Source: a virus
UHGV virus genome: UHGV-2173514
Strand: one strand, 5' to 3'
Length of the DNA: 11,755 nt
The stretch's first letter is position 1. The number at the start of each line of letters is the position of its first letter. This document shows positions 8,386 to 11,755 of the stretch, one piece after another. The notes under the pieces are model-generated. The model made no database searches. It saw only the letters and a program-made list of their open reading frames with translations, and had not been told where the DNA came from. Made by a program: the position numbers and the translations under genes.

Positions 8386-8569
8386 ACTGAATCTCCCGTC
8401 CAAAAGCGCAAATCATGCCATGCAGGCCAGAAACGGCCATTATTTAAAACCTCGGTTTACGAGAACTCGGCACAAGCGGGGAGAAAATACCGTTACTCAG
8501 TACAGCGAATACCTGGACCAATCGACAAACATTCAGCGGTGGCCTTTCTGGGGAACTGTCCGGCAATGC
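8194..8569. repeat. Left arm of a ~376-bp imperfect inverted repeat (partner 11084-11459)
   Basis: The reverse complement of 8194-8569 aligns base-for-base with 11084-11459 at roughly 93-96% identity by eye. It covers the invertase codons 1-64, the invertase upstream region, the gix site and ~105 bp of tail-fibre coding sequence. Confidence 0.85.
8440..8465. other. gix/hix-type invertase crossover site (left)
   Basis: TTATTTAAAACCTCGGTTTACGAGAA matches Mu gixR (TTATCCAAAACCTCGGTTTACAGGAA) at 22/26 positions: two imperfect half-sites around a central dinucleotide at 8452-8453. Confidence 0.8.
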
Positions 8570-9161
8570 CGCTACTGCAACAAAGCTGAAAACAGCACGA
8601 AAAATTGCTGGAGTTGGTTTTGATGGTTCTAGCGATATTTCAATTAGTGCCAAAAATGTCAATGCATTTGCACTCCGACAAACAGGTAATACTGTTAATG
8701 GTGATACATCCGTTGGATGGAATTGGGATAGTGGTGCATATAACGCCATGATTGGTGGTGCATCTGCATTAATTCTTCACTTTAATATAAATGCTGGTAG
8801 CTGTCCTGCCGTACAATTCCGTGTGAATTATAAAAATGGTGGCATTTCCTACAGGTCGGCTCGTGATGGTTATGGGTTTGAATTAGGTTGGTCAGATTTC
8901 TATACCACGACACGAAAACCTTCAGCGGGAGATGTTGGTGCATATACGCGGACAGAATGTAACTCAAGGTTTATTACAGGTATTCGCCTTGGCGGTCTGT
9001 CATCTGTTCAGACATGGAATGGTCCCGGCTGGTCTGACAGGTCAGGTTATGTCGTTACGGGTTCAGTTAACGGAAACCGTGATGAATTAATTGATACAAC
9101 ACAGGCAAGGCCAATTCAGTATTGCATTAATGGGACGTGGTATAACGCGGGGAGTATTTAA
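8448..9161 (+). CDS. Tail-fibre C-terminal variable cassette Sv (5'-partial, no own start)
   Basis: The frame opens right after TAA 8445-8447 inside the gix site: [63 protein letters not shown]... ending ...CINGTWYNAGSI, stop 9159-9161. Homologous to the opposite-strand cassette. The track lists only the part from the first Met (8748). Confidence 0.75.
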   Translation, partial: NLGLRELGTSGEKIPLLSTANTWTNRQTFSGGLSGELSGNAATATKLKTARKIAGVGFDGSSDISISAKNVNAFALRQTGNTVNGDTSVGWNWDSGAYNAMIGGASALILHFNINAGSCPAVQFRVNYKNGGISYRSARDGYGFELGWSDFYTTTRKPSAGDVGAYTRTECNSRFITGIRLGGLSSVQTWNGPGWSDRSGYVVTGSVNGNRDELIDTTQARPIQYCINGTWYNAGSI

Positions 9162-9163
9162 CG

Positions 9164-9697
9164 ATGATGCACTTAAAAAACATTACTGCTGGCAACCCTA
9201 AAACAAAAGAGCAATACCAGCTAACAAAGCAATTTAACATCAAATGGCTTTATTCAGCTGATGGAAAAAACTGGTATGAGGAACAAAAGAATTTCCAGCC
9301 AGACACTTTGAAAATGGTCTATGACCATAACGGCGTTATTATTTGTATTGAAAAGGATGTTTCAGCAATTAATCCGGAAGGCGCAAGCGTCGTTGAATTA
9401 CCTGATATTACAGCAAATCGCCGGGCTGATATTTCGGGGAAATGGATGTTCAAAGATGGCGTAGTGGTAAAGCGAACTTATACCGAGGAAGAGCAGAGGC
9501 AACAAGCGGAAAATGAAAAGCAGAGCCTGTTGCAACTTGTCAGGGATAAAACTCAGCTATGGGACTCACAGCTACGGCTGGGCATCATTTCCGACGAGAA
9601 TAAACAAAAATTAACCGAGTGGATGCTCTATGCGCAGAAAGTCGAATCCACAGACACCTCCAGCCTGCCAGTAACATTTCCCGAACAACCTGAATGA
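9164..9697 (+). CDS. tfa: Tail fibre assembly protein (Tfa, Mu U / P2 G-like)
   Basis: 177 aa, starting 2 nt after the Sv stop. The N-terminus MMHLKNITAGNPKT...[13 protein letters not shown]...PDITANRR...GKWMFKDG is nearly identical to the minus-strand paralog while the C-terminus diverges. Confidence 0.9.
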   Translation: MMHLKNITAGNPKTKEQYQLTKQFNIKWLYSADGKNWYEEQKNFQPDTLKMVYDHNGVIICIEKDVSAINPEGASVVELPDITANRRADISGKWMFKDGVVVKRTYTEEEQRQQAENEKQSLLQLVRDKTQLWDSQLRLGIISDENKQKLTEWMLYAQKVESTDTSSLPVTFPEQPE

Positions 9698-9701
9698 GAC
9701 A

Positions 9702-9728
9702 AGGCCCGATAACGGGCCTTAATTTTTA
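9702..9728. terminator. Terminator hairpin between convergent tfa genes
   Basis: aggcccg (9702-9708) / cgggcct (9713-9719) with loop ataa, followed by taattttta. The stop codons of both tfa genes flank it. Confidence 0.6.
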
Positions 9729-10253
9729 TTCAGGCTTTTGTGGCCATTCAGGATTTGCCGTATCCACACGGTTGACCAGAACACTGTAGCGTTCCCATGC
9801 TTCCAGTCGTGTGCGTTCCTCGTCTGTTGCCATATTCAGCCTGACAGCGCGTTCCAGCGGCTGGATGACTGATTCAGCTTCGGAAAGCAATGCGGCCTTT
9901 TGTGATTCGGCCTGTTGTTGCTGTTCGTCAGCCGTATAAATCCGTTTAACCACAGCTCCGTCCTTAAACATCCACTTACCGGAATCATCGGTCCGACGAT
10001 TGGCCGTTATATCGGGAACCTCGACGACGCTAAAACCTTCGGGATTAAGCGTGGAGGCATCTCTGGTGATGGCGACAATAATATTATTTTCATCGTAAAC
10101 AATCTTTATGGTGTCTGGCTGAAAGTTTTTCACTTCCTCATACCAGTTTTTTCCGTCCTCAGAGTAAAGCCAGATAACTCCGTGTTTCTTTGTTAACTCA
10201 TACTGTTCCAGTGTTTTAGCATTACCCGCTTTTATGTTCTTTAAGTGCATCAT
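9726..10253 (-). CDS. tfa: Alternative tail fibre assembly protein (Tfa')
   Basis: 175 aa, [14 protein letters not shown]...; paralog of the plus-strand Tfa. Starts 1 nt after the Sv' stop. Confidence 0.9.
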
Positions 10254-10254
10254 A

Positions 10255-11205
10255 TTAAACGCTCGCTACATTATACCAGGTGCCATTTATATACTTTTGA
10301 ACGGGTCTGTAATAAACGCCCGCTATATTATCGGCAGAGTTAGACCCTGTATCCTGAACATTAATACCAGACAATACATGACCTGAAGGGCACTGGAAAT
10401 TCCATGTTTGCCAGTTGTTCACTCCATAATATTGCTGTGAACCAAGTCGAACATCTTTCACATAACGGGAATCAAAGTTACCGTAATCCGAGGGGTTAAC
10501 ACGCCCTGTAATATTTATGGTTTTATTACTTTGAATGCTTCCGGAGACAAAGCGCATAACATGGACGTTATTAGCATAAACATCCAGATTACCATCGCCA
10601 TTTTGTTTAAAGCCCGTGTCATTATCACCCAATACAATCGAATTACCGCCAAGAGCACTGGATGTTCCGATACCCAGTGCACCATTCAGTTGACCACCAG
10701 ATAACGGCAGTGCACCAACATCTCCTGCTGAAGGTTTTCTGGTGGTGGTGTAAAATTCGGACCAGTCGGCTTCAAAACCATAACCATCACGGGCTGAACG
10801 ATAAAAAATACCGCCATTTTTATAATTAATCCGAAACTGAGCTGCAGGACAACTTCCGTCTCCCATATAAAAATGAATAATTAACGTTGATGCACCACCA
10901 ATATTTGCGTTATAGGCTCCGCTACTCCAGTTCCATCCAACTGCTTTATCATTCGCAACGGTGCTTCCTGTTTTCCCTAAGGCAAACGCACCAACATGAC
11001 TTGCTTTTAATGTGATATCGGAGGAACCATCAAAAGCCACATTGCTTATTTTCCTGGCAGTTTTTAATTTTGCAGCTGTAGAAGCATTGCCGGATAGTTC
11101 ACCAGAAAGGCCACCGCTGAATGTTTGTCGATTAGTCCAGGTATTCGCTGTACTGAGTAACGGTATTTTCTCCCCGCTTGTGCCGAGTTCTCGTAAACCG
11201 AGGTT
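10255..11205 (-). CDS. Alternative tail-fibre C-terminal variable cassette Sv' (5'-partial, no own start)
   Basis: The minus-strand frame is open from the gix-R site (stop at 11208-11206) through ...[38 protein letters not shown]... to ...[12 protein letters not shown]. The track shows only 10255-11040 from an internal GTG. Confidence 0.8.
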
Positions 11206-11213
11206 TTAGATAA
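11188..11213. other. gix/hix-type invertase crossover site (right, inverted)
   Basis: TTCTCGTAAACCGAGGTTTTAGATAA; its reverse complement differs from the left site at one position. Confidence 0.8.
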
Positions 11214-11243
11214 TGGCGGTTTCTGGCCTGCATGGCATGATTT

Positions 11244-11459
11244 GTGCTTTTGGACGGGAGATTCAGCGTGCTGATTGGCTATGTAAGGGTATCAACAAAT
11301 GACCAGAATACAGATCTGCAACGAAACGCTCTTGTTTGTGCAGGATATGAACAAATATTTGAAGATAAATTAAGCGGAACAAGGACAGGCCGACCTGGAT
11401 TAAAACGTGCTTTAAAGCGCCTTCAAAAAGGTGACGCACTGGTTGTCTGAAAACTGGAC
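11244..11459 (+). pseudogene. Truncated second copy of the invertase 5' end (first ~64 codons, premature stop)
   Basis: Encodes (V)LIGYVRVSTNDQNTDLQRNALVCAGYEQIFEDKLSGTRTGRPGLKRALKRLQKGDALVV, then TGA at 11448-11450 where the intact gene has Trp. Nucleotide similarity to the intact gene ends at about 11460 and no catalytic-domain remainder or HTH follows in any frame. Confidence 0.75.
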
Positions 11460-11755
11460 TGACTGGTTCACTGTATGCGGCATCTTGTCGTGCTGGTGGT
11501 GGAAGCCTAGAAAAAGTATCGGGTGTTACTGAACCGTGTTGATACATCAACTGCACCTGATATTGAGTGGCCTACGAACCCTGTCAGGGAGTAATCATTG
11601 GGATTATGCCGCAGCACGTCTTAAGCAAGAACGTGCTGCGGTTGGATGCTATTTTTTCCCTGAAGCGGAAAACATTACTACAGTACCTTGAACCTTGGTT
11701 TTAACATTCTCGAAATGCTCTGAGAGTATATGTGTTAAGCCTTCTTCGGAATCTT

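Follow-up and report, generated by a model that had tools for sequence, protein, structure and literature searches.

Near the end of the UHGV virus genome UHGV-2173514, the 5' part of a DNA invertase gene occurs twice, in inverted orientation, on the two sides of one invertible tail-fibre segment. Is this a single inversion system that carries a second copy of its own control region, or were the two sides brought together in another way? Here, the whole stretch of 11,755 nucleotides (hereafter the window) was compared with closed genomes and with known inversion systems. A sequence-only reading had proposed that the copy on the far side preserves the promoter and the first 64 codons of the invertase gene and could supply a second enhancer and promoter, or that it could be the footprint of an inverted duplication or of a past recombination between two invertase genes. 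Our comparisons indicate that the window is probably a chimera, made during draft assembly, of the inversion modules of two E. coli ST131 prophages, which are named Phi1 and Phi4 in EC958.

The inverted repeat on the two sides of the segment

The inverted repeat is present in the window. By direct count, positions 11084–11459 are identical to the reverse complement of 8194–8569 at 358 of 376 nucleotides (95.2%), with no indels, a match that is well above chance. The repeat tool extended the arms to 457 nt each (Table 1; 89% complementarity), and they are far longer than a 26-bp crossover site, as had been noticed. Compared arm with arm, the crossover sites are identical at 25 of 26 positions, the 54-bp stretch upstream of the invertase ORF at 51 of 54, and the 5' part of the ORF (11268–11450 in the right arm) at 173 of 183, so the repeat does cover the upstream region as well as the 5' coding part of the invertase gene.

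The end of the homology had been put near 11460, which is about right in position, but the match fades rather than stops: identity drops to 59% over 11451–11504 and to 29%, the random level, past 11504. Besides the outward stretch into the invertase that had been described, the right arm continues towards the inside of the segment: beyond the crossover site it enters tail-fibre sequence, reaching 11048 and, with about 72% identity, 10711. The figure of 64 retained codons needs correction. We counted codons from the RefSeq-annotated start of the intact copy (GTG at 8385), which matches GTG 11268 in the right arm, and this start gives 60 codons up to the stop at 11448–11450, while the GTG further upstream, at 11244, gives 68.

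Table 1. Positions of the features in the window (11,755 nt)
Feature	Position	Strand	Evidence or remark
N runs (three)	410–431, 3785–3819, 6873–6917	.	lengths 22/35/45
Intact Gin-type DNA invertase of Phi1, 199 aa	7786–8385	-	Pfam Resolvase 1.4e-50, HTH_7 4e-13
Left arm of the inverted repeat	8149–8605	.	invertase 5' part, upstream region, crossover site, inner tail-fibre stretch
Candidate Fis-site pair, left arm	centres ~8345 and ~8297		mirror of the right pair
Left 26-bp crossover site, TTATTTAAAACC TC GGTTTACGAGAA	8440–8465	+	exact pattern match; equals EC958 Phi1_3prime
Invertible tail-fibre segment of Phi1	8453–11200	.	ORFs, RefSeq annotation of identical DNA, Pfam gp37_C
Alternative fibre C-terminus inside the Phi1 segment	to 9161	+	
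tfa inside the Phi1 segment	9164–9697	+	
tfa, second copy inside the Phi1 segment	9726–10253	-	
Repeat common to Phi1 and Phi4 (tfa' and fibre C-terminus, ~1.1 kb)	10075–11204	.	sequence comparison
Fibre C-terminus inside the Phi1 segment	10255–11148	-	
Right arm of the inverted repeat	11048–11504	.	repeat tool and direct count
Right 26-bp crossover site, reverse complement TTATCTAAAACC TC GGTTTACGAGAA	11188–11213	-	equals EC958 Phi4_3prime
Truncated invertase pseudogene of Phi4, 60 codons then TGA	11268–11450	+	Pfam Resolvase profile positions 2–69 only
Candidate Fis-site pair, right arm	11308–11356	+	48 bp between the centres, which lie at ORF positions +41 and +89
Tail-fibre assembly gene (C-terminal fragment), fused behind the invertase remnant	11511–11594	+	Pfam Caudo_TAP profile positions 107–130
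Class I SAM-dependent methyltransferase gene of Phi4 (3' end), truncated where the window ends	11649–11755	-	RefSeq annotation of identical DNA

The Phi1 prophage and its switch

Judged by sequence identity, window positions 1–11204 are the tail and invertase end (ogr to invertase) of Phi1, the P2/P88-like prophage of ST131 that lies beside serS. The window starts 15 bp inside the prophage end adjoining serS, and the host flank is absent. A Hok/Gef toxin gene (250–390, minus strand) and ogr (595–855, minus strand) are followed by the P2-like tail genes, of which D is on the minus strand and sheath, tube, E, tape measure and U are on the plus strand.

The Phi1 invertase is 85% identical to Mu Gin, and RefSeq labels it as a recombinase family protein in closed genomes. 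With its length inside the 190–200 aa range and its Resolvase and C-terminal HTH_7 domains, the left copy is a serine recombinase, while the right copy retains only a partial Resolvase match (Table 1) and has a stop at codon 61. The two crossover sites are inverted with respect to each other and share the central TC/GA, as in Gin/Hin/Cin/Pin systems, though they come from two different prophages.

Part of what an invertible fibre segment should show is seen, namely the alternative fibre C-termini and the tfa genes. However, no constant N-terminal part of a fibre gene lies beside the segment in the window, and the tail-fibre frame ends at a TAG (11207–11209). The window shares with P88-type phages and closed ST131 genomes a layout of invertase, site, two opposed fibre/tfa pairs and second site; beyond the second site, the annotated records that we inspected continue with the tail-fibre constant part and then the baseplate genes. 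For example, the far side of the segment in P88/P88-4B11, NR363, 4/1-1 and OW848785.1 is a tail-fibre constant region and not an invertase fragment. Closed genomes pair Phi1_3prime with Phi1_5prime, and the Phi1 segment is flipped in JJ1887, AR_0081, AR_0086 and other closed genomes. A truncated invertase copy on the far side, whose conservation in related prophages had been suggested as a check, is thus absent from P88/P88-4B11 and from every closed Phi1 inspected.

The Phi4 flank and its broken invertase

On the same kind of comparison, window positions 11205–11755 can be assigned to the right flank of the lambdoid prophage Phi4 at ompW/trp. The piece 11150–11755 is 100% identical to a second locus of the same closed genomes, and the bases specific to Phi4 are 11205 and 11208, in the outer half of the right crossover site, and 11214, just outside it. 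This locus, a lambdoid prophage bounded by an ISEc12 copy and ompW'/trpA, has its own tail-fibre gene and invertible segment, followed by a partial recombinase, a partial tfa and a methyltransferase gene.

The invertase remnant ends where TGG is changed to TGA at 11448–11450, and its translation has stops at codons 61, 65 and 81. Decayed homology to the invertase continues to about 11504 and is lost after about codon 79, and the tfa fragment that follows is annotated as a partial gene by RefSeq. The remnant is 100% identical to that in Phi4 of closed ST131 genomes, where it is marked as a partial recombinase. In this native place it is widespread: 7,443 collection blocks contain exactly its 60-aa product, and at the places read it always stands beside a lambdoid tail-fibre module, mostly adjoining the trp operon. 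Similarly, a 44-mer of the remnant is found in nine IMG/VR contigs, all of them native Phi4 contexts.

The guess that the repeat is a footprint of two invertase genes was therefore close, as the right arm is the truncated invertase of Phi4. Simple decay of a second invertase, which the sequence-only reading had set against its own proposal, is in substance what was found, with the nonsense codon at 61, the loss of homology past about codon 79 and the fusion to tfa.

At the right end of Phi4, the tfa fragment (11497–11643) has a second copy, 88% identical, about 0.9 kb further on (7397–7544 of locus extract L003), and this duplication suggests that rearrangement may have occurred there repeatedly. 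IMG/VR also holds contigs in which the Phi4 segment is flipped beside the truncated invertase. Since both orientations occur among closed genomes or IMG/VR contigs, both switches, that of Phi1 and that of Phi4, are active or recently active in nature.

Two distant loci share a repeat of about 1.1 kb

Closed ST131 genomes carry the two loci in direct orientation, with about 530 kb between them; in 4/1-1, for example, the Phi1 locus is at 958,565 and the Phi4 locus at 1,487,829 on the same strand. The genes pth, prs, ispE, lolB, hemA, prfA and kdsA, which are essential in E. coli, are located between them. The alignment of the window to the top-ranked closed E. coli genomes ends at 11217.

In OW848785.1-like genomes, the repeat common to both loci matches exactly for 1,130 bp; in EC958-like genomes it contains 12 SNPs. 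Phi1 of OW848785.1 differs from window positions 6918–11217 at three positions only (11205, 11208 and 11214, as first identified against 4/1-1), and Phi4 of the same genome is 100% identical to 10075–11755. Compared with 4/1-1, the window carries Phi1 alleles up to 10074, Phi4 alleles at 10318–10569, Phi1 alleles at 10735–10904 and Phi4 alleles from 11205 onward, and the switch is preceded by a last identical stretch of 300 bp. From these alignments, the change from Phi1 to Phi4 is placed somewhere inside the repeat at 10075–11204.

The blocks at 10318–10569 and 10735–10904 are identical between Phi1 and Phi4 in OW848785.1, where each locus has one block from the other. Best-hit identities suggest that the same homogenisation may be present in g1-11 and NR363. 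Such blocks could come from gene conversion across 530 kb, or from homogenisation of the repeats by read polishing. In NZ_CP080119.1 (strain M45), the Phi4 flank matches a synthetic query of Phi1 invertase and Phi4 segment at 99.5%, compared with 99.1–99.3% for other native Phi4 loci, and it may hold another small conversion tract.

The junction in finished genomes and the signs of a draft

The Phi1/Phi4 junction of the window was found in none of 5,426 closed E. coli genomes; in this set, a 2.7-kb query across Phi1-specific and Phi4-specific sequence gave no full-length match. When synthetic queries were built for junctions of the inversion type, a2 x b1 and a1 x b2, all matches were at the native loci. 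Apart from the homogenised blocks of the shared repeat, the closed genomes thus offered no independent hint that Phi1 and Phi4 recombine.

Three N runs break the sequence, one upstream of hok, one in the tail-tube gene and one in the tape-measure gene, and ORF lengths are unreliable there. These runs of 22, 35 and 45 stand for 9, 22 and 22 nt in closed ST131 genomes. Deliberate masking was considered and rejected, because the lengths differ from those of the replaced sequence; N runs of wrong length are a mark of a scaffolded short-read draft. In the tape-measure gene, a 27-nt in-frame deletion relative to the closest closed genomes lies at about 4916, with no obvious flanking direct repeat. 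A 40-mer across this deletion was not found in IMG/VR, GTDB representative genomes or JGI metagenomes, and the deletion could be a real polymorphism or a further assembly error.

Contigs of short-read ST131 assemblies, whether simulated or real, end at the edge of the shared repeat (EC958 1,486,790–1,486,795). Misassembly of prophages in short-read ST131 data was described by the EC958 authors (PMC4134206). One such assembly, NA114 (PMC4134206), resembles the window in that prophage and repeat regions are wrongly arranged and that it breaks at the same repeat edge; however, according to the BLAST tables its Phi1 and Phi4 pieces are small separate contigs, whereas the assembly of the window would have run through the repeat, and NA114 was rejected as its source.

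Likeness to Mu and candidate enhancers in the two arms

Apart from its flanks, the module is of the type known from the G segment and gin of Mu, and also from cin and the C segment of P1, pin and the P segment of e14, and hin of Salmonella. Besides the identity of the invertase to Gin, its sites closely match TTCCTGTAAACCGAGGTTTTGGATAA, and its segment has a gene layout of the S/U and U'/S' type. The boundary of the Mu G segment lies about 67 bp from the start of gin, and each arm of the window has 67.5 bp between the centre of its site and the ORF start. Unlike the window, Mu has one invertase gene and the constant part of S opposite to it, while the window has invertase 5' ends on both sides and no constant part.

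As the sequence-only reading also pointed out, enhancers of Gin/Hin-type systems lie in the 5' part of the invertase gene, which the repeat covers. As far as nt 180 of the ORF, both arms align with Mu gixR-gin at nearly every base, and gin is the gene in which the enhancer was mapped. A pair of Fis sites about 48 bp apart, named as something to look for, was obtained in part. A relaxed degenerate consensus gave a candidate pair exactly 48 bp apart, at +41/+89, in three sequences, Mu gin, the Phi1 invertase and the Phi4 remnant, and a pair of this kind in 4.5% of shuffled sequences; a strict scan, which requires the terminal G and C, gave no 48-bp pair, and the proximal candidate site of the Phi4 remnant has lost the terminal C. 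A complete lack of such a pair, which the sequence-only reading had set against its proposal, was thus not what the relaxed scan showed. The centre of the proximal candidate is about 108 bp from the site centre, in agreement with the native spacing of about 100 bp between enhancer and site for Hin (PMC4817059). The second promoter fared less well: a scan for sigma-70-like promoters found none in either arm, so a promoter copy rests only on homology with the upstream region of gin.

How the two prophages came to be joined

The explanation that we favour is that the window was joined wrongly during assembly. A short-read assembler would have come into the shared repeat from Phi1 and gone on into Phi4, and the long inverted repeat would be the homology between the 5' end of the Phi1 invertase and the Phi4 remnant, artificially brought together. 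In the real chromosome, each arm would lie beside its own segment.

Several observations favour such a mis-join. Both sides of the window map at about 100% to loci some 530 kb apart, the left site being Phi1_3prime and the right site Phi4_3prime; the switch falls inside a repeat that exceeds the usual length of short reads and inserts (1,130 bp in OW848785.1; a last identical stretch of 300 bp in 4/1-1) and at whose edge short-read assemblies of ST131 break; the N runs of wrong length point to a scaffolded draft; and the junction is carried by 0 of 5,426 closed genomes. The join is of the deletion type and would remove the essential genes between the two loci. Moreover, the succession of Phi1, Phi4, Phi1 and Phi4 alleles, as seen against EC958-like genomes, resembles collapsed repeats. 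Neither orientation of the segment has a constant N-terminal fibre part, and as far as can be read from its frames, the switch as drawn could express no fibre.

Other points weaken the case for a mis-join. The first Phi4-specific bases fall in the outer half-site next to the central GA, as a true site-specific exchange would give, and assemblers break at such repeats more often than they cross them. The junction would also form with no lethal deletion if a P88-like genome had entered Phi4 by way of the shared 1.1 kb. The allele mosaic is not decisive, because OW848785.1-like lineages need one switch only.

A real junction, in which the Phi1 segment became linked to the flank of the Phi4 invertase by recombination of the two prophages, is unlikely. 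The recombination could be site-specific, by the Gin-like invertase of Phi1 acting at the near-identical crossover sites, or homologous through the shared 1.1 kb, and it could have gone by way of a second, circular P88-like genome that inserted into Phi4 or of a duplication-bearing chromosome. An action of the Phi1 enzyme on Phi4 in trans was proposed by the EC958 authors (PMC4134206). An exchange at the central dinucleotide would fit the switch in sequence, one or two bases distinguish the sites of Phi1 from those of Phi4, and the homogenised alleles in some closed genomes suggest that the segments exchange sequence. However, the sites are direct repeats in the chromosome, and the simple product of their recombination is a 530-kb deletion that includes the essential genes. 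Wild-type Hin-type invertases carry out inversion only, from an enhancer-bound branched synapse (PMC4817059), and enzymatic deletion between direct sites is therefore not expected. Neither this junction nor a2 x b1 or a1 x b2 was seen in the 5,426 closed genomes, and the record itself is a gapped draft. The narrower proposal, that the Phi1 invertase or recombination in the shared 1.1 kb joined prophages 530 kb apart, for example by capture of a P88-like genome in Phi4, seems to us quite unlikely; if true, tail-fibre switches would be drivers of rearrangement between prophages and of the chromosome in ST131.

A composite contig from a mixed culture, in which sub-populations with differing Phi1/Phi4 orientations or rearrangements gave conflicting assembly edges, is distinctly improbable; the artefact would then have a biological origin. 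In EC958, the Phi1 segment is flipped in about half of the PacBio reads, and alternative contigs of 8.7–12.7 kb were assembled for Phi1, Phi2 and Phi4 of EC958 (PMC4134206); both orientations are also present among closed genomes and IMG/VR contigs. However, flipping alone never brings the Phi1 segment next to the Phi4 flank, the join is accounted for by the shared repeat without any heterogeneity, and the N gaps point to short reads and not to a long-read contig of an alternative allele.

The first proposal, in which one invertible element retains part of the 5' end, promoter and enhancer of its own invertase as an inverted duplicate that works as a second control copy, can be put aside as highly improbable: both arms do keep a gin-like 5' region with a candidate Fis pair, but the right arm belongs to Phi4, about 530 kb away, being 100% identical to its flank and different from the Phi1 copy at 18 positions, the tail-fibre constant region takes this place in P88-type relatives and in each closed Phi1 that was inspected, no fibre gene could be expressed between two invertase flanks, and neither arm shows a sigma-70-like promoter in a simple scan.

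Implications for inversion modules of ST131 prophages

Assembly of the window from two modules is our preferred reading, and the sequence similarity between its two sides is real, while the architecture most likely is not. The parts were already known, as the components were described in 2014 for EC958 (Forde et al. 2014, PLoS One 9:e104400; PMC4134206). The two sites of the window are letter for letter the Phi1_3prime and Phi4_3prime sites in Table 3 of that study (PMC4134206). Unlike in the window, which alone puts both round one segment, these sites are about 530 kb apart in EC958 and in all closed genomes, and each has its own 5prime site. This calls for caution: repeats on the kilobase scale and near-identical crossover sites recur in tail-fibre inversion modules of different prophages, and draft assemblies can therefore fabricate inversion architectures that look new.

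In EC958, the Phi4 invertase is severely truncated and the Phi4 segment inverts nevertheless; the crossover sites of Phi1 and Phi4 are nearly identical, and the Phi1 enzyme probably acts in trans on Phi4 (PMC4134206). In its native place, the Phi4 remnant would supply a Fis enhancer in cis for the Phi4 segment, with the invertase acting in trans, and from its likeness to gin it is plausibly a cis enhancer for Phi4 inversion. That the Phi4 segment still flips would fit a pseudogene fragment persisting as a cis element that is served by an invertase in trans.
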